From positions 1-64,000 of IMG/VR virus record IMGVR_UViG_3300002895_000002: 64,000 nucleotides of DNA. One strand, written 5' to 3'. The DNA is from a virus. Lineage: Duplodnaviria; Caudoviricetes. Position 1 is the first letter of the stretch; each line of letters opens with the position of its first letter. The notes beneath the pieces are model-generated. The model did no database searches. It was not told where the DNA came from and worked only from the letters and a program-made list of their open reading frames with translations. Made by a program: the position numbers and the translations under genes. This document shows positions 4,151 to 61,299 of the stretch, in pieces.

Positions 4151-4753
4151 CTATTTTTCATGAGACTTTATATGTCTAGAAAGCCAGGTTTTTCCAGAAA
4201 CAATTTTTCTGCATATTGGACACGCAAGTTTTTCTTTTGACTTACCTTTTTGCCAGGCTGACATTTTTTCTTTAGCTTCGGTTGAACGAGTTTTGCCGGT
4301 ATTTGATGCTGCTATTTTTTCCTTATGTTCGTTTGATCTATTTTTTGCTTTTTCTGACATTTTCATTTTTGCTTCTACAGATTTAGTTTTTCCTTTCAAT
4401 GATCCGGCTATCTTTTGTTTCGTTTCGTTTGAATGAGAATAGTCCAATGTTGATTTTATCCATGAATAGTTTTTTGATGAAAGTTTTCTACATTCGGACA
4501 TCATCCCAAATGCAAATGCCATCATTGGACCTTTGACTTTGTGATGTCGCCATATACGTGCAAGAAGTAGATGGGCTACAAAATGCTCCCGAAGAGGCAA
4601 ATTTACTCGATTCCAAGATCCATCAATATCATCTATACCATCGATCTTAGCAAATGACTTTGGAATGATATGGTGGCTGTTAGTATATGACTTGATTTTT
4701 GGATGATCTTTGTACTTGGCGATAAGACGGTCGTAGATTGCTTGGTAATCCAT
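4151..4753 (-). CDS. HNH homing endonuclease, family copy 1 (NUMOD3 C-terminus)
   Basis: HHIIPK...WNRVNLPLREHFVAHLLL HNH core; HSNETKQKI NUMOD3 repeats. Confidence 0.85.
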   Translation of the reverse strand: MDYQAIYDRLIAKYKDHPKIKSYTNSHHIIPKSFAKIDGIDDIDGSWNRVNLPLREHFVAHLLLARIWRHHKVKGPMMAFAFGMMSECRKLSSKNYSWIKSTLDYSHSNETKQKIAGSLKGKTKSVEAKMKMSEKAKNRSNEHKEKIAASNTGKTRSTEAKEKMSAWQKGKSKEKLACPICRKIVSGKTWLSRHIKSHEK

Positions 4754-20485: not shown

Positions 20486-21269
20486 GACTATTCTTGCAGT
20501 TATCGAAATGATAACGTTTCAGTCCATTAGTTCCGCCTTCTTTATTACAATAGGGGCACACACTTTTCGATTTAGGTTTTCTGAATTTTTCTTTTGCTTC
20601 TTCGGATAATGTTTTTCCTTTTAGGCTTGAACCTTTGCCGCGTCTTGCATTACCGATGTTTATTTTTGCACTATCCGATTTTGGTTTTCTGAGTTTTTGT
20701 TTTTGTTCTTCGGTCATCGGTCTAGACATTTTAAGTTTTGTTTCCTGGGTATGTGTTTTTCCTAACATTCCCATCGATGGTTTATTGATATTCCAATTTC
20801 TGATTTTTTCAATAGATTCGGGTTTATGTTTTCTACCTTTCCAAACAACATTACCAGTCGCAGCAACACTTAGTTTTTGTCGTGTTTCATCTGTAATGAC
20901 TTGTGTTTTCCTTGCATTTCTTATTTTTTCTTTTGTTTCATTTGAATGTGGACCGTGAGAATAATTCAATTTGAGCCAGGTATAATCTTTTGATGTATAC
21001 GTTCCGCATTCAGTCATTCGATTGAGCGCTGTTGCCATCTTCGGACCCTTGATCTTATGACCTCTCCATATACGAGCAAGAAGCAGATGAGCAATGAAAT
21101 GAGCTTTATGGGGTAGATGCACTCTGTTCCAACGACCATCAATGTCTTCAATGTTATCGACTTCAGCGAATGATTTTGGAATAATGTGATGGTTGTTGGT
21201 TTGAAATTTGACTTTTGGATGATTGATGTACTTGGTAATAAGCTGATCGTAAATGGACTGGTAATTCAT
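20334..21269 (-). CDS. HNH homing endonuclease, family copy 2 (NUMOD3 repeats plus C-terminal Zn ribbon)
   Basis: MNYQSIYDQLI...HHIIPK...WNRVHLP..HFIAHLLL; CPYC...HFDNC. Confidence 0.85.
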   Translation of the reverse strand: MNYQSIYDQLITKYINHPKVKFQTNNHHIIPKSFAEVDNIEDIDGRWNRVHLPHKAHFIAHLLLARIWRGHKIKGPKMATALNRMTECGTYTSKDYTWLKLNYSHGPHSNETKEKIRNARKTQVITDETRQKLSVAATGNVVWKGRKHKPESIEKIRNWNINKPSMGMLGKTHTQETKLKMSRPMTEEQKQKLRKPKSDSAKINIGNARRGKGSSLKGKTLSEEAKEKFRKPKSKSVCPYCNKEGGTNGLKRYHFDNCKNSPNRKNLQENEVSASSHSLPPTRRYLGMTSSIPSSSCTWRSCCSPTRPCSE

Positions 21270-24513: not shown

Positions 24514-25080
24514 ATGATATGTGAAAATTGCGAACAGGAACACAATGGAACATATGGTGCAGGAAGGTTTTGTAATGTGAAATGTGCGAGGGGATTTAGC
24601 ACTAAGAACAAAAGAACAGAAATAAATGAGAAAGTGAGTAAAAAACTCACTAATCGGAAATGCACAAAAGAAACAATAGAAAAAAGAATTATAACTAGAA
24701 GAATGAATGGAAAAAAACACAAATGCTCAGAGGAAACAAAAGAAAAAATAAGCAAATCTCTGAAAAACAAAAAGGTATATCCAAAAAACATAAAAGAAAT
24801 TCCAAACCGAACAGTTGCTAAAATCATAAATCGAATGAACATTGGATGTTCAAGCTGTGGGTGGAATGAAGCAATAGGAGACATACACCACATAATACCA
24901 AGAAGCAAAAATGGTAGTAATAACCACGACAATCTTACGTATCTTTGCCCGAATTGTCATCGTTTGGCACATTCCGGTAAAATAAATTCATTTATAACAT
25001 TACAGGAACACATCGGGGGAAAATGGAAAGAATATTATTTTCCTGAACTTGCAGGATTGGATCTATCGTCTAAAGGCTAA
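24514..25080 (+). CDS. HNH homing endonuclease (Zn finger plus NUMOD3 plus McrA-like HNH)
   Basis: CSSCGWNE...DIHHIIPRSKNGSNNHDNLTYLCPNCH; own TATAAATA promoter; AT-rich. Confidence 0.85.
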   Translation: MICENCEQEHNGTYGAGRFCNVKCARGFSTKNKRTEINEKVSKKLTNRKCTKETIEKRIITRRMNGKKHKCSEETKEKISKSLKNKKVYPKNIKEIPNRTVAKIINRMNIGCSSCGWNEAIGDIHHIIPRSKNGSNNHDNLTYLCPNCHRLAHSGKINSFITLQEHIGGKWKEYYFPELAGLDLSSKG

Positions 25081-28060: not shown

Positions 28061-28645
28061 TTATTTCAACAATCTTCGTCTTAGATGGCCTTCGCTTATT
28101 TTCTTTTTTGTTTCTTCTGATCTAGGTCTTCTAAGTTTTGCTTTCGTTTCTTCTGATAATGGACCAGTCGATTTACCTTTCTTTGATTCACTTATTTTTC
28201 GTCTTGTTTCTTCTGACTTTGGTTGTCCATATTTTCCTCGTCGTGTTTCACTCATTTTTTGTCTTGTTTCTTTAGAAACGGCAGGTCTTTTCTTTGCAGA
28301 ATCTTTCATTTTCATTTTTGATTCTTCCGAATGTGAATAATTTAGTTTTAGACAAGAATATTTTCTAGAGTTATATGATTCATCCTTTTGCATAATGTTG
28401 ATTGCTCGAGCCATTTTAGGGCCTTTAACTTTGTGATGTTTCCATATACGGGCAAGAAGCAAATGTGCAATGAAATGAACTCGGTGTGGTAAATGAACAC
28501 GATTCCATCGTCCGTCAATGTCTTCAATGTTATCAATTTTAGCAAAGCACTGTGGGATGATGTGATGATCGTTAGTTTCAAACTTGACTTTTGGATGATC
28601 TTTGTATTTAGCGACGAGTTGATTGTAGATAGATTGGTAGTTCAT
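28061..28645 (-). CDS. HNH homing endonuclease, family copy 3
   Basis: MNYQSIYNQLV...HHIIPQ...HFIAHLLL; NUMOD3 repeats. Confidence 0.85.
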   Translation of the reverse strand: MNYQSIYNQLVAKYKDHPKVKFETNDHHIIPQCFAKIDNIEDIDGRWNRVHLPHRVHFIAHLLLARIWKHHKVKGPKMARAINIMQKDESYNSRKYSCLKLNYSHSEESKMKMKDSAKKRPAVSKETRQKMSETRRGKYGQPKSEETRRKISESKKGKSTGPLSEETKAKLRRPRSEETKKKISEGHLRRRLLK

Positions 28646-29853: not shown

Positions 29854-30329
29854 TTGTTTTTCTTTGTTTTTCTTTGTTTTGCTGCGGCTGATATTTTTGC
29901 TTTAGTTTCTTCTGTGCGAACTTTTCCTCTATTAGCATTTGCTCTTTTTATTTTAGTTTCTTCAGATTGTATTCGTCCTTTACTCAAAGTTGATATTTTT
30001 GCTTTGGTTTCTTCTGAATAAGCGAAGTTCAATTTCAACCATTCATAAACTTTCGAGGTATATTTACTGTTAGACATCCGCCGAAACGCATATGCCATTT
30101 TCGGTCCTTTGGCTTTATGACCTCTCCATATACGATCAAGTAACAAATGGGCGATGAAATGTTCACGAAGCGGAAGATTGACTTTGTTCCACTTCCCATC
30201 AATGTCTTCTATTCCGTCAATCTTTGCGAATGACTTTGGGATGATATGATGACTATTGGTTTTACCTTTTATTCTGGGCGAGTCGATATGTTTAGCGATA
30301 ATTTGATCGTAGATAGACTGGTAATTCAT
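29829..30329 (-). CDS. HNH homing endonuclease, family copy 4
   Basis: MNYQSIYDQII...HHIIPK...HFIAHLLL; NUMOD3 repeats. Confidence 0.85.
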   Translation of the reverse strand: MNYQSIYDQIIAKHIDSPRIKGKTNSHHIIPKSFAKIDGIEDIDGKWNKVNLPLREHFIAHLLLDRIWRGHKAKGPKMAYAFRRMSNSKYTSKVYEWLKLNFAYSEETKAKISTLSKGRIQSEETKIKRANANRGKVRTEETKAKISAAAKQRKTKKNNHFVGDTL

Positions 30330-37921: not shown

Positions 37922-39535
37922 ATGGGCCTGTCCTGGTTCACAGATGAAGAAGTAGTTCCCAAGAAGGAAGCCAAACAAAAAGCAGCGAAAGGTGAGGCTC
38001 CCCTTCGTAAGGACGACATCAAGGAGATGAACGATGTCGAGCACATCCTTCACCGGCCGACTATCTACATCGGTTCCGTCCTTGAAGAAGACATCGAGAC
38101 TTTCGTCTACGAAAATGGGCGGGTGGTGTCCAAGCCTGTGAAGCAGATTCCGGGTCTGTGTAAGATCATTGACGAGATCATAGACAACTCCGTTGACGAG
38201 GCGATCCGGACCAAATTCCAGTATGCCACGAAGATTGATGTAACCTTCAAAGATGGAACGGTAACGATCGAAGACAATGGTCGTGGTCTTCCCATCGAGC
38301 AACGGGAAGATGGCAAGTGGACCCCGGAAGTTATCTTTACCAAAACCAAATCCGGCTCTAACTTCAACGACGACGGCCGGGCTACGATGGGAATGAACGG
38401 GGTTGGCTCATCCCTCACTAACATTTTCTCAACCATCTTCAGTGTAGATACCGCCAACGGTGTCAAGCGGTTCCGTCAGACCTACGAAAATTCCATCTCG
38501 AAGATTGGGAAGCCGAAGATTGAGCCTGGCAAGAGCAACTACACCCAGGTTTCCTTCAGACCGAACTATGATTACTTCAAAGCGTCAGCTGAGACCATAT
38601 CCAACCTGCCGTTGTTGATCGAGAAACGGATCAGGAACCTGGCGTTTGCGTTCCCTGAAATCCAGTTCCGGTTCAACGGTCAGAAGATTGCAGGCGGAAA
38701 CCTCCGTCAGTTCCTGTCACAGATCCACGAGGTGTTTGAGTACAACGAAACAGATGACGCCAGGATTGGCGTGTTCTTCTCAGAAAATGATTTCCAGCAG
38801 ATCTCGTTCGTCAACGGTCTCGAGACCCGCCGGGGTGGTGTACACATCGACCAGATAATGAACAGGATCGTTGACTACCTGCGGGACTACCTGAAGAAGA
38901 AGCACAAGATCGAGGTCAAGCCGGCGGACATCAAGAGCAAGATCTTCCTGATGTTCTCGATGCGTATGACCAACGCCCAGTTTGATGGCCAAACCAAAGA
39001 ACGACTGATGAACAGCATCACTGAGTTCAAGGACACAATCGAGGGTGTGATAACTGAGAAGTTTCTCAAGACCATCGCCAAGAACGAAGAGATCATTGCT
39101 CCCATCGTTGAGTCCTACAAGCTCCAGCAGCAGGTCAAGGAGAACCTGGAGCTCAAGAAAATGTCCAAGGTGGCCAAGAAGGTCAAGGTGGACAAGTATT
39201 TCTCAGCTACCAACGAGCAACGGTATCTTATGTTGTGCGAAGGCGACTCAGCGGCAGGTGGATTGATGGCAGCTCTGGGTAGGGACCAGTTCTCTTACTT
39301 CGCCCTCCGTGGTGTACCCCTCAACGCTCACGAAGCTAAGGTCAGTAAGATCACTGACAACGAAGAGCTCAAGAACGTGGTGCAGATACTGAATCTGGAC
39401 CTCACTAAGGACTTCCAGGACATTCCTGAAGGCAGCTTATGGTTCGAAGTTGAACTTGACGGTGAGAAAATAGTAGTAAATGAAAACGATGAAGTATATG
39501 TCAATGGTAAATGGATAAAGGTAACAGAACTATGA
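37922..39535 (+). CDS. 39: DNA topoisomerase II large subunit, N-terminal part (gp39-like) with a non-core C-terminal tail
   Basis: EHILHRP..YIGS, EIIDNSVDE, GMNGVG, CEGDSA, LRGVPLN; stops before the DxDxDG TOPRIM motif. Confidence 0.92.
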   Translation: MGLSWFTDEEVVPKKEAKQKAAKGEAPLRKDDIKEMNDVEHILHRPTIYIGSVLEEDIETFVYENGRVVSKPVKQIPGLCKIIDEIIDNSVDEAIRTKFQYATKIDVTFKDGTVTIEDNGRGLPIEQREDGKWTPEVIFTKTKSGSNFNDDGRATMGMNGVGSSLTNIFSTIFSVDTANGVKRFRQTYENSISKIGKPKIEPGKSNYTQVSFRPNYDYFKASAETISNLPLLIEKRIRNLAFAFPEIQFRFNGQKIAGGNLRQFLSQIHEVFEYNETDDARIGVFFSENDFQQISFVNGLETRRGGVHIDQIMNRIVDYLRDYLKKKHKIEVKPADIKSKIFLMFSMRMTNAQFDGQTKERLMNSITEFKDTIEGVITEKFLKTIAKNEEIIAPIVESYKLQQQVKENLELKKMSKVAKKVKVDKYFSATNEQRYLMLCEGDSAAGGLMAALGRDQFSYFALRGVPLNAHEAKVSKITDNEELKNVVQILNLDLTKDFQDIPEGSLWFEVELDGEKIVVNENDEVYVNGKWIKVTEL

Positions 39536-39723
39536 ACAACGAACGTTATCTAGTATATGACCCTGATGGCAACTTCGTAAACATACTTGACCTGACTTCT
39601 ATTCTTCATGACCATGCCGCATATAAAAAGCAATGGAAAGAAAAACAACAATGGAAAACCTCGGGTATACATTCGTTGAAGACATCGCATAAAAAACCGT
39701 CTAAATCATGGTCACATTTATAA
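39532..39723 (+). CDS. Small ORF inside the topoisomerase insertion cassette
   Basis: ATG overlaps the gp39 stop; MNNERYLVYDPDG... Confidence 0.4.
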   Translation: MNNERYLVYDPDGNFVNILDLTSILHDHAAYKKQWKEKQQWKTSGIHSLKTSHKKPSKSWSHL

Positions 39724-39729
39724 ATAGAC

Positions 39730-40827
39730 ATGGAGGAAAAAACAATGCCATGTCCATTCTGTAACCAAGAAGTCATCAGTGAAAAACCATTTCGTTGCGT
39801 AAATGATGAATGCCGTTCTAAAGTGTTGAACAAACAGTCTAAAGAGTACATCAAAGTAAAAAATGGTTGGACCGATGAACAGGTAAAAGAGTATCTGTCA
39901 TCTAAGACCAAAGCCGGCCATTCCAAACGAGACCATTCGGTAAACCCCAATAGTCGAGAAGCATGGCGGCGTAGAGGACTTTCTGAAGAAGAAATAGACA
40001 CCGTCATGAAAGCCAAAGGACAGAAAGTAAGTAAAACACGAAAAGAACTCGGTCTTGGACGTGGCGACTCAAATAGCATGTCCAAGAAAAAAATGCTTGA
40101 AAGTGGAATGAGTGCTGAAGATGTGGAACTGTTTACCAGATCGCGCATTCATTCTTGTCCTGAGTACTGGGAGAAACGTGGTTACGACCGCCAGCAGGCA
40201 GAAAAACTCGCGGCTGATGCTGGCAAAACTATCACAAAAGAAAAACTTGGAGAAGAAGGTTTCAAACTAGCAAAACACCGGATGTCTAAAGTTGGTAGGA
40301 TGGAAAAACTCATCAAAGAAGTCGGTATTGAAAACGCCGAGAACGAGTTCATAAAGCGTTACATCAAGAACTCCTATATAAAGGTCGGCCGTTCATCGAA
40401 ACATGCGATGCGGCTATTTCTTCCCATTTATAAAATGTTGCGAAAAAGTGGTATGACGAAAAAAGACTTCTTTATCGGAACACATAAACGAAATGAAATG
40501 TTCATTCGCGATGGTAATGACATATTCTTCTATGACTTCGTTATCAAACCACTAAACCTTATATTCGAGTTCAAAGGAACTCACGTTCATCCTTCGCCGA
40601 ACATGTCCATTGAAGAAAGAAATCAGTGGCGGCACGCGTATTCAAAATGCTCAGCCGACGAAGTAGATAAAAAAGATAATCGCAAAAAAATAGTTGCAGA
40701 AAGTAGAGGTTATGTGTTATATTATATCTACAGCAACAACACCGACGAGCATAACATTTCTGAAATGGAAAGGATCATCAAATGCAAGATGCAAGATGTA
40801 AAAAGAAACTCATTGACCCGAAGGTAG
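39730..40827 (+). CDS. Homing endonuclease-like protein (repeat-rich N-terminus, C-terminal PD-(D/E)XK/Vsr-like domain)
   Basis: FFYDFVIKPLNLIFEFKG..H motif; own TATAAATA at about 39719; inserted between gp39 and gp60. Confidence 0.7.
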   Translation: MEEKTMPCPFCNQEVISEKPFRCVNDECRSKVLNKQSKEYIKVKNGWTDEQVKEYLSSKTKAGHSKRDHSVNPNSREAWRRRGLSEEEIDTVMKAKGQKVSKTRKELGLGRGDSNSMSKKKMLESGMSAEDVELFTRSRIHSCPEYWEKRGYDRQQAEKLAADAGKTITKEKLGEEGFKLAKHRMSKVGRMEKLIKEVGIENAENEFIKRYIKNSYIKVGRSSKHAMRLFLPIYKMLRKSGMTKKDFFIGTHKRNEMFIRDGNDIFFYDFVIKPLNLIFEFKGTHVHPSPNMSIEERNQWRHAYSKCSADEVDKKDNRKKIVAESRGYVLYYIYSNNTDEHNISEMERIIKCKMQDVKRNSLTRR

Positions 40828-41366
40828 CCAAGAACCTTTATCAGAAACGGCCCAATGTTCGCCGGTCAACCAACATGTCACATGAATGCGTCGTGTTCGC
40901 TTCCGACCAAGACCTAGATGGTTGACCTTCGGGTCAACTATCGATCCAACCTAAAGAGTAAATCGGCATTCATATTCGTGGCTTATTATTGGCATTCTTC
41001 CACCGTTTCGCTCCGAGTCTCATCAAGCAGGGCCGTATCTGCTACCTGCAGACTCCCATCGTAACTGGCAAGAAGAAGGGCAAGATCGTCAAAGTGTTCT
41101 TCGATCTGTCAGAGTACCGTGCCTTCGCTCAGACAGAAGAAGCCAAGCAGTACCAGTTCGACTATCGCAAGGGTTTGGGAAGCTGGGACATTGACAGCGG
41201 CGAACTCCAGGAGGTCATCAAGCTCGTTGGAATGGAGAACATGCTGAAACCCTTCGAATGGTCCGATGAAGCTCCCAAGAAGATTGATGACTGGCTTGGT
41301 GGGAAGAACTCGGATGTTCGGAAGACCTACCTGAACGGTCGCAGCTTCAGCATCGACGGGATATGA
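40782..41366 (+). CDS. 60: Topoisomerase II gp60-like subunit containing a 45-nt coding gap (40923-40967) predicted to be ribosomally bypassed
   Basis: MQDARCKK...NVRRS...FASDQDLDG(GGT) TGA ... GGC then IHIRGLLLAFFHRF...YRKGLG; joining restores DxDxDGxHI. Confidence 0.88.
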
Positions 41367-41424: not shown

Positions 41425-42753
41425 ATGAAGATTGCAGATTTCTTTGCAAATGATTACACCGATTTTGCCACCTATGATAACTACCGCAACCTCGGTAGCT
41501 ACATAGATGGACTGAAACCGTCCATGCGGAAGATCGTCCACGTCTTTGACAAGAACAACATCACCACCCCAACCAAAGTAGAACAGCTCCAGTCCAAGAT
41601 CGCTGAGCAGACAGAATACCTGCATGGCTCCCATACGTTGGCGGGTGTTATCGTTAACATGTCAACGAGCTACCCTGGCACCAACAACATGCCGCTCCTT
41701 CTCCCTAAGGGTAACTTCGGTACGCGCTGCGTTCAACGTGCGGCGGCTGGCAGGTACATCTACGCATCAAAGGCACCGGCATTCAGTAAACTGTTCAGGG
41801 CGGAAGACAGACCCATCCTCATCGAGCAGGAGTTTGAGGGGACCATCATTGAGCCGAGATTCTTTCTCCCTGTCCTTCCCTTGCTCCTAGTAAACGGTTC
41901 TGAGGGCATTGGAAACGGCTACAGCCAGAAGATCCTCCCTCGTGATCCCAAGCTCCTAGCCAAACTAGTCTTTGAATACCTGACCAAAGGCAAGCTCCCC
42001 AAGAACATCCCACCTTACTTCGAGGGCTTTCAGGGAACAGTCTCTCCCGTTGAAGACAACCCGGGCTCGTGGGTTATTACCGGATGTCTCGAGAAGACAG
42101 ATCGGGCAACTCTCAGAATAACCGAAGTCCCGGTTGGGTATGATCTCGAGGGTTACACCAAGAAGCTCGACGACCTTGAAGAGAAGAAAGTAATCAAAGG
42201 CTACACCGACCGCTCCGACGGTAAGAACAAGATCTGTTTCGACGTCAGGGTTGATCTCGAGTTCATGCGGAAGCCGTTGGAGTGGCAGTTAGCTCAACTC
42301 AAACTCACCCGCAAGTTTAGTGAGACTTACACCTGTCTTGATGAGAATAACGGAATCCGTGAGTTTGAATCTGAGGTTGAAATCCTTAAGGCCTACTGTG
42401 ACTTCCGTGTCAAACAGTATGATGTCCGGAAAGCCTATATTGAAGGAAAGCTCAAGCAGGATATTGGTGTACTGAAGGAAAAGGCCCGCTTCGTTGAACT
42501 GGTAGTAACCGAGAAGATAAAGATCTTCAGGATGACTAAGGTCTATATCGAAGAGCAGTGTGAGAAACATAAGCTCTCGAAGAAGGATGGCTCGTATAAT
42601 TACCTGACCGGCCTTCCCATCCATTCCCTCACCGAAGAGAAGATAGATGAACTCAAGGCTGAGGTTGTGAAGAAGGAAGAGGAGCTTGACTGCATCAGTA
42701 AAACCCCAGCTCAAACCATGTGGATCAACGATATCAAAGAGGCAGTAAAATAA
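41425..42753 (+). CDS. 52: DNA topoisomerase II medium subunit (gp52, GyrA/ParC-like)
   Basis: DGLKPSMRKI, YLHG, GNFG, AAGRYI catalytic Tyr, GIGNGY. Confidence 0.95.
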   Translation: MKIADFFANDYTDFATYDNYRNLGSYIDGLKPSMRKIVHVFDKNNITTPTKVEQLQSKIAEQTEYLHGSHTLAGVIVNMSTSYPGTNNMPLLLPKGNFGTRCVQRAAAGRYIYASKAPAFSKLFRAEDRPILIEQEFEGTIIEPRFFLPVLPLLLVNGSEGIGNGYSQKILPRDPKLLAKLVFEYLTKGKLPKNIPPYFEGFQGTVSPVEDNPGSWVITGCLEKTDRATLRITEVPVGYDLEGYTKKLDDLEEKKVIKGYTDRSDGKNKICFDVRVDLEFMRKPLEWQLAQLKLTRKFSETYTCLDENNGIREFESEVEILKAYCDFRVKQYDVRKAYIEGKLKQDIGVLKEKARFVELVVTEKIKIFRMTKVYIEEQCEKHKLSKKDGSYNYLTGLPIHSLTEEKIDELKAEVVKKEEELDCISKTPAQTMWINDIKEAVK

Positions 42754-60642: not shown

Positions 60643-61299
60643 TCATTGATAATGAAGATGCATGGCTAAGATAATTATAAGTTCCTTTCTTTCTCGTGCT
60701 AATCTTTTATGTGTAGCTGACATTTTATTTTTAGTTTCTTCTGAAATTATCTGTTTTGCCCGGGCTTCCTTGATTTTATTTTTAGATTCATCTGAATGTT
60801 GTTTTCCAAAGAACGAATTTTTATTTCCTTTGTGGGAATCGCTTTGTTGTTTGATGTAGTCCTCGGAATAGGCATACCCATTTGCAAATTTAGAATGCCT
60901 GGTTTTTGATATTTTTTGTTTAGTGCTTTCGGATTGAATGTAACCCATTTTAGCATCAGATATTTTTTGTTTATGTTCGTCTGAATGTGAATAATTTATT
61001 CGTAAAAGTAAATAATCTTTTGACCCATATCTCTTACAATTTGTCATTCTTAGAATTGCTTTAGCCATTTTTGGGCCTTTGACTTTATGGCCACGCCAGA
61101 TACGAGCAAGAAGCAGATGGGCAATGAAGTGTTCCCTGATGGGTAGATTGACTCTGTTCCATGAACCATGTATATCTTCTATTCCATCAAGCTTTGCAAA
61201 CGACTTTGGAATAATGTGATGACTTTCGGTTTGTTTTTTGATCTTGGAAGTGTTTCAGTTGTGTTCAATAAGACGGTCGTAAATGGACTGGTAATTCAT
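60643..61299 (-). pseudogene. HNH homing endonuclease, family copy 5, with in-frame TGA at codon 15 (61255-61257)
   Basis: MNYQSIYDRLIEHN*NTSKIKKQTESHHIIPK...HFIAHLLLARIWRGHKVKGPKMAK in a single frame. Confidence 0.85.

Follow-up and report, generated by a model that had tools for sequence, protein, structure and literature searches.

In bacteriophage T4, gene 39, mobA and gene 60 form a cassette with a 50-nt bypass, an arrangement reportedly described by Bonocora et al. in PNAS in 2011. For decades the bypassing in T4 gene 60 was a single case, and diverged natural copies of it reveal which of its signals are essential. Here we analyze a variant with a predicted 45-nt gap, a UGA stop, a GGU/GGC codon pair and a shortened nascent peptide. 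It lies in the first 64 kb (hereafter the window) of a 213,116-base virus record, IMGVR_UViG_3300002895_000002, of a T4-like phage from a hot-spring enrichment. With a probability of roughly 0.88, we interpret positions 39422-40991 of the window as a selfish insertion of the same element family as T4 39/mobA/60, with a predicted bypass and with homing by a Vsr-like nuclease.

Elements of this kind, consisting of a C-terminal extension of gp39 (CTE), an endonuclease, a gp60 head (called NTE) with the segment HomR, and a bypass, were described in dozens of phages and metagenomes by Manning & Atkins (bioRxiv 2022, 10.1101/2022.08.31.505936). In their clade 11, a VSR-family endonuclease takes the place of MobA, and the present locus is the MGS12 of that clade, given there as IMGVR_UViG_3300002900_000001 from an enrichment of the Chocolate Pots hot spring. 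At all strings searched, the window agrees with the gp60 product, the bypass DNA and the 360-aa nuclease given in Table S2 and Files S1, S2 and S5 of the preprint. The supplementary text of the preprint, in which the MGS12 nuclease is called a putative VSR endonuclease, gives it 33% identity with its MGS11 counterpart; further, the GGU/GGC pair is given for MGS12, UGA stops for three unnamed metagenomic sequences, and Table S2 lists a likely parental form. Since the preprint describes the same sequence and the same reading, the split topoisomerase cassette that an earlier note had recognized in this DNA is correct but already known.

The listing of open reading frames (ORFs) shows, on the plus strand and in this order, a gp39-like ORF with its end at 39535, then a small ORF, an ORF of 360-365 aa, a 47-aa ORF, the rest of a gp60-like frame that stays open between 40962 and 41366, and gp52 (Table 1). 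The parts named in the earlier note, a gp39 tail, a small ORF, a nuclease gene behind a late promoter and a new gp60 head, are all present. In a protein search we found two unsplit large subunits, P0158 and P0159, which are 75% and 72% identical to the gp39 of the window. An alignment with these and with the contigs L007 and L008 places the insertion in the large-subunit Toprim domain, shortly before the DxDxDG motif, where it replaces a short stretch of the gene. The earlier note had gp39 leave the conserved sequence directly after ILNLDL, but the next six residues, TKDFQD, are still common to the window and the two unsplit proteins, so that the tail begins only at 39422 (IPEGSLWF...).

The right border is marked by a recoded stretch of 27 nt. 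This stretch is 92.6% identical between the window and L003, a relative with the same kind of cassette and a nuclease 61% identical to that of the window, whereas the rest of the element and of the gene has 64-70% identity. Between L003 and the unsplit L007, 10 of the 27 nt differ, all of them synonymously, and the nine codons spell the same GIHIRGLLL in both. Because the stretch is recoded between L003 and L007, yet kept between the window and L003, we place the border at 40991, 27 nt past the start of the landing codon. By these comparisons, the element of the window comprises 1570 nt in the Toprim region of the large-subunit gene.

L003 and L007, the latter being the contig that encodes P0159, also show a presence/absence polymorphism at one site between near-identical genomes. 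A 1619-nt element in L003 replaces about 73 nt of L007, with flanks that are 94.9% and 96.7% identical. As judged from this alignment, the pair represents a discrete element with clean borders.

The earlier note described the tail of gp39 as very similar to that of T4, and an alignment bears this out. In BLASTP, the two gp39 proteins are 40% identical overall, with an alignment that reaches the final residue, as against about 65% in the tail (~22 of the final 34 residues, end to end; WFEVELDGEKIVVNENDEVYVNGKWIKVTEL in the window and WFTFELNGDTIIVNENDEVQINGKWITVGEL in T4). In their DNA, the two tails agree almost completely over a core of about 60 nt, and the motif W-F..DG...VNENDE...G.W..V..L is kept in 14 split gp39 proteins. 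At the level of these alignments, the likeness to T4 is far beyond chance. When the gp39 tail and the gp60 head were co-folded without controls, the score was 0.27 and the mark 0.32. We also considered the tail as a degenerate intein (Hint) fragment; hhalign meets the expected intein block with a P of 0.036 and a probability of 1.4%, there is no Pfam Hint match, and the idea is unsupported.

The nuclease frame is open from 39730, where the earlier note had placed the gene, and an ORF is indeed present there; its start, however, is most likely the ATG at 39745 (MPCPFC...), which has GGAGG 8 nt upstream. The octamer TATAAATA that precedes it has 15 copies in the window, where about one would be expected, and this late-promoter box is also found in L003, inside a conserved 35-nt stretch. 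In L004, a more distant Vsr-type cassette, GATAAATA and an 11-bp hairpin enclosing GGAGG precede the nuclease start (L004:4960-5015; −15.4 kcal/mol, z −2.2), which is the classical T4 way to confine the translation of endonucleases to late transcripts.

Scans of the nuclease with Pfam and NCBIfam did not assign it to a family, its sole PHROGs match was phrog_22677, whose function is unknown, and a search of the PDB with the family profile reached at best an E-value of 0.19, to 3hrl. The AlphaFold (AF2) model has a predicted local distance difference test (pLDDT) score of 92.5. In VIA comparisons, residues 214-350 of the model resemble the DUF559 protein 3hrl_A (Z 9.5, root mean square deviation 2.2 over 91 aligned residues), the I-Bth0305I catalytic domain (3r3p_B; 9.4, 2.9 over 95) and Vsr (1cw0_A; 9.4, 5.2 over 124), all three of which stand above the next matches. 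Foldseek with the whole model had 1vsr (Vsr) as its top match, with a probability of 0.98 but an E-value of 0.047. We consider the assignment of the modelled domain to a Vsr-like fold of the PD-(D/E)XK superfamily to be sound, and the model suggests that the protein is catalytic. The N-terminal part, a four-cysteine zinc ribbon followed by helical repeats of the type YW..RG.S.EEA, presumably binds DNA.

In an exhaustive profile search we found more than 3600 representative relatives of the nuclease, of which 65 were aligned. S218, E251, D264, E275 and H282 are invariant among these and K314 nearly so; the ORF of the window is intact and has all invariant residues. Of these, D264, E275 and H282 are candidate active-site residues, D264 and H282 being possible counterparts of D51 and H69 in Vsr. 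A DUF559 match was obtained for 6 of the 65. The lysine of E275-F-K277 is replaced by asparagine in 42 and by histidine in 22 of the 65 relatives; judged by this alignment, the apparent ExK is not a signature of the family, which does not have the lysine of a classical (D/E)xK motif. Neither the ORF nor any frame of the cassette shows likeness to MobA of T4 or of the Proteus-phage type, and a search for MobA remnants in the cassettes of the window, L003, L004 and L011 gave nothing meaningful. As far as sequence comparison goes, the cassette nuclease is neither MobA nor HNH. The view of the earlier note, that it is PD-(D/E)XK-like rather than HNH, is upheld by the Vsr-like fold and the lack of MobA likeness, although the ExK that its reader probably saw is not conserved. 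Since no frame resembles MobA, the cassette is a Vsr variant and not a MobA element in the strict sense.

Elsewhere in the same genome, outside the window, a 117-aa open frame contains another short stretch that matches the last 47 residues of the Vsr-like family (G000:C1:146546-146683) and may be a remnant. The window itself has at least five Mob-like HNH endonuclease genes, none of them in the topoisomerase cassette.

Vsr-type cassettes were found at seven further loci (L003, L004, L011, L012, L014, L017 and L031). In a tree of the eight topoisomerase-cassette nucleases, six form one clade, with a support of 93 in the Shimodaira-Hasegawa-like approximate likelihood-ratio test (SH-aLRT), and the other two form another; the nuclease therefore appears to travel with the cassette rather than to reflect a single accidental replacement. 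The Vsr-like protein could instead be a later, independent free-standing insertion into the space of a lost MobA, within a cassette that is no longer mobile. It has its own promoter, it is preceded by an extra small ORF in the window and in L003, and its family, which is large, is found in many further places, among them inteins in gp39 and gp52. Against this, the cassette contains no MobA remnant, and such a course of events fits poorly with the clustering of the cassette nucleases, whose host gp39 proteins are as little as 26-37% identical, and with the difference between L003 and L007, which involves the whole unit from the tail to the recoded codons, with clean borders. We regard it as unlikely.

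The head of gp60 is encoded by a 47-aa ORF (40782-40925) that ends in DQDLDG-TGA and comprises 34 unique residues followed by a 13-residue copy of the parental strand. Its expected likeness to the head of T4 was confirmed: both have an NVRRS core and a tyrosine, which is invariant in an alignment with T4 and seven other heads, and at the DNA level they have AATGTTCGYCG (coding for NVRR) in common. This homology is visible only in DNA and multiple alignments; BLASTP searches with the 47-aa head alone gave no match, and none with the T4 head.

The gap that follows is 45 nt long when counted as for the 50 nt of T4, with 42 nt between the take-off and landing codons. Its layout in the window is GAT GGT TGA, an 11-bp hairpin with UUCG loop, AAAGAG, six bases and GGC ATT CAT, compared to GAT GGA TAG, a homologous hairpin, AAGAG, six bases and GGA in T4. 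RNAfold gives the hairpin −17.4 kcal/mol (z −2.3). Its pairing is kept by double changes relative to T4 and five other cassettes, including the change from UAG to UGA, and in five cassettes whose gaps differ in length (38-47 nt) compensatory changes preserve the hairpin. Joining at GGC yields DQDLDG-IHIRGLLL, exactly the sequence of uninterrupted relatives, and the invariant DxDxDG-xHI spacing is restored only by joining the take-off and landing codons. L003 has the same GGT/TGA/GAG-N6-GGC layout with a 44-nt gap, and readthrough is excluded there because the frame changes across the gap. For the window, we infer that the head is likewise joined to the gp60 remainder by bypass rather than by readthrough.

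In these alignments, tail, head and bypass are homologous to the corresponding parts of the T4 39/mobA/60 cassette. The earlier note had proposed that the nuclease may have been swapped while the split and the bypass scaffold were kept; the T4-homologous tail, head and hairpin, together with the lack of MobA similarity, support a nuclease different from that of T4 on a retained scaffold, whichever of MobA and the Vsr-like nuclease came first.

The element splits the gene and supplies a 37-aa tail to gp39 and a 47-aa head to gp60. By analogy to T4, peptidyl-tRNA-Gly would leave GGU beside the UGA within the UUCG hairpin and re-pair with GGC, probably aided by the nascent head peptide and by the GAG 6 nt upstream of the landing site. 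The predicted bypass product is a gp60 of 179 aa in which the canonical motif DQDLDG-IHIR is complete. The nuclease, expressed from the late promoter, would cut or nick uninterrupted topoisomerase alleles in mixed infections, so that repair copies the element in, and the carrier allele may be protected by the gap itself and by the recoding of the sequence to its left and right. Tail and head may further help to reassemble the split Toprim domain, as suggested by T4 and the preprint.

Several observations weigh against a homing element of this kind. A hairpin at the start of the nuclease gene that could mask the Shine-Dalgarno (SD) sequence in read-through transcripts is predicted only weakly (z −1.8) and not kept in L003, and the nuclease family has no characterised member. 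There is no with/without pair in the own lineage of the window, where the closest unsplit relative is 75% identical, and the mismatches between L003 and L007 are not clustered near the insertion, with no visible co-conversion tract. The locus could accordingly be read as a decaying relic, in which the cassette is dead, the nuclease inactive or domesticated and gene 60 a pseudogene, the phage relying on another topoisomerase. It would be in line with this that mobA itself is degenerate in T4 and some relatives (10.1101/2022.08.31.505936), that in the window the small ORF adjacent to the nuclease seems to carry a frameshift and that K277 is atypical for the nuclease family. Against it stand the intact nuclease ORF, which keeps every residue that is invariant in the family and has a late promoter and an SD sequence of its own, a gp60 remainder that is colinear with unsplit relatives and conserved, the maintenance of bypass signals via compensatory changes, and the polymorphism between L003 and L007, which reflects recent gain or loss in the lineage; decay is on this evidence quite improbable. 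Hardly credible is an enzyme of three pieces without bypass, in which the 47-aa head is released at the TGA and the rest of gp60 starts independently downstream, Toprim being rebuilt from three polypeptides: the GAG 6 nt before GGC resembles a weak ribosome-binding site and there is a TTG at 40989, but no start codon lies at or near 40965 or, in L011, near the junction, a start at the TTG would lose the conserved GIHIRGLL, and the homologous T4 arrangement is known to be read by bypassing (10.1101/2022.08.31.505936).

Table 1. Features of the split topoisomerase locus and related genes in the window.
Feature	Position	Strand	Remarks
gp39 body, topoisomerase II large subunit	37922..39421	+	ATPase, transducer and first half of Toprim, to ...LNLDLTKDFQD
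Element-borne C-terminal extension of gp39 (CTE), 37 aa and stop	39422..39535	+	absent from unsplit relatives
Small ORF coupled to gp39 stop (ATGA overlap)	39532..39723	+	
T4-type late promoter TATAAATA	39719..39726	+	precedes nuclease gene
Nuclease gene, 360 aa	39745..40827	+	predicted Vsr-like catalytic domain at the C-terminus (residues about 214-350), preceded by a 4-Cys ribbon and helical repeats
Unique gp60 head (NTE), 34 aa, element-borne	40782..40883	+	overlaps nuclease 3' end out of frame; putative nascent-peptide signal (Y20, NVRRS)
HomR, element-borne copy of Toprim strand ECVVFASDQDLDG	40884..40922	+	ends in take-off GGT 40920-40922; aligns with SHDCVVFASDQDLDG of unsplit relatives
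Take-off hairpin	40917-40942	+	11 bp, UUCG loop; starts 6 nt upstream of gap
Coding gap	40923..40964	+	TGA 40923-40925; second in-frame stop TAA 40959-40961; GAG 40956-40958, 6 nt before landing codon
Landing codon GGC and eight recoded AT-rich codons (G-IHIRGLLL)	40965..40991	+	right end of element
gp60 resident remainder, second half of Toprim and TOPRIM_C	40992..41366	+	Pfam TOPRIM_C; colinear with unsplit relatives
gp52, topoisomerase II medium subunit	41425..42753	+	Pfam DNA_topoisoIV, E 2.7e-66; context, outside element
Mob-like HNH genes	4466-4753, 20997-21269, 28286-28645, 30042-30329, 60997-61299	-	
Mob-like HNH gene	24877-24972	+	

The gp39 body has Pfam matches to DNA_gyraseB, HATPase_c and Toprim; its ORF is open from TTG 37892, and the gene callers and the preprint have ATG 37922 as start. 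Unlike the flanking topoisomerase parts, the inserted ORFs have no Pfam match, and megablast searches with the region against phage records found no match. The small ORF behind gp39, for which neither a family nor a usable Atlas match was found, most likely starts at the ATG that overlaps the gp39 stop rather than at 39511. L003 has a homologous 69-aa ORF in the same place, whose conserved C-terminal part is found in the window in the −1 frame after TAT AAA AAG (39622-39630), ending with TAA 39690-39692; this frame break may be due to mutation, assembly error or slippage. L011 and L012 have a different, zinc-finger-like small ORF at the same place.

Three of the further Vsr-type cassettes (L011:5585-5640, L012:3920-3975 and L017:4118-4200) have no long gap. 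Their heads end in DQDxD and a stop, and 4 nt (GAT TGA C GGA) or 5 nt (GAT TAG AC GGG) later, without hairpin and without GAG, gp60 continues in a different frame (G-IHIR... or G-SAIT...). The landing codon overlaps the stop (GAU-U-GAC, GAU-UA-GAC), and a hop of tRNA-Asp from GAU to this GAC would restore the DxDxDG spacing, whereas a +1 frameshift would add one residue. Gaps of 4-5 nt were found neither in a string and keyword search of the supplementary files of the preprint nor in the literature searched. A scan of viral contigs for further loci with 4-nt gaps had no matches, and among the 80 of 84 stretches covered in a metagenome scan none was of the hop type, 78 being ordinary in-frame IDGIHIR genes and 2 stopped in both frames. 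We tentatively suggest that the Vsr-type cassettes might be a lineage of their own that is still mobile, with nuclease, tail, head and recoded target travelling as one unit and with a bypass that is being remodelled, in L011, L012 and L017 into a short peptidyl-tRNA-Asp hop.

Other insertions affect the same enzyme. Six uninterrupted large subunits related to gp39 (P0229, P0234, P0256, P0258, P0272 and P0276) contain a mini-intein of 144-151 aa within DxDxDG (DAD/C...HN/CDG), two codons before the bypass site, and in P0229 and P0235 a fused tail and head are kept without nuclease ('hit and run'). Nucleases of the Vsr-like family also interrupt gp39 near residue 453 (L018, L061, L064 and L069) and gp52 near residue 68 (L023, L035, L038, L047, L052 and L056), most likely as inteins. 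Going by these positions, there are three conserved spots in the phage topoisomerase, and each of them is a target of the family.

In the text and files of the preprint we found neither the 27 recoded nucleotides as part of the element nor the small coupled ORF nor a fold test of the nuclease, and also not the L003/L007 pair with and without the element or the further Vsr-type cassettes. New in our analysis are the exact borders, the recoded 27 nt, the with/without pair, the fold-level test, the unconserved lysine of the ExK, seven more cassettes and the gaps of 4-5 nt. The change of nuclease suggests that homing enzymes of unrelated kinds can make use of the scaffold of tail, head and bypass, a point already made in the 2022 preprint; the value of the present results lies in their independent confirmation, by fold, borders and with/without pair, and in the related loci, which widen the set of natural variants.

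Compared to the 39/mobA/60 cassette of T4, the locus is alike in the Toprim insertion site, the tail (about 65% identity), the head (Tyr, NVRRS), the take-off hairpin with UUCG loop, the stop directly after the Gly take-off codon and the GAG 6 nt before the Gly landing codon. It differs in having a 360-aa Vsr-like nuclease where T4 has the HNH protein MobA, a 45-nt gap with UGA and GGU/GGC where T4 has 50 nt with UAG and GGA/GGA, an extra small ORF, a directly following gp52 and a host gene that is only 40% identical. With the Vsr-like (EDxHD) homing endonucleases such as I-Bth0305I (3r3p), E. coli Vsr (1cw0) and DUF559 (3hrl), the nuclease has in common the predicted fold of the catalytic domain and the setting of a selfish nuclease in phage genes. 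Its identity to these proteins is 14-16% and its presumed DNA-binding part at the N-terminus is a different one; it is free-standing within a split gene instead of residing in an intron or intein.

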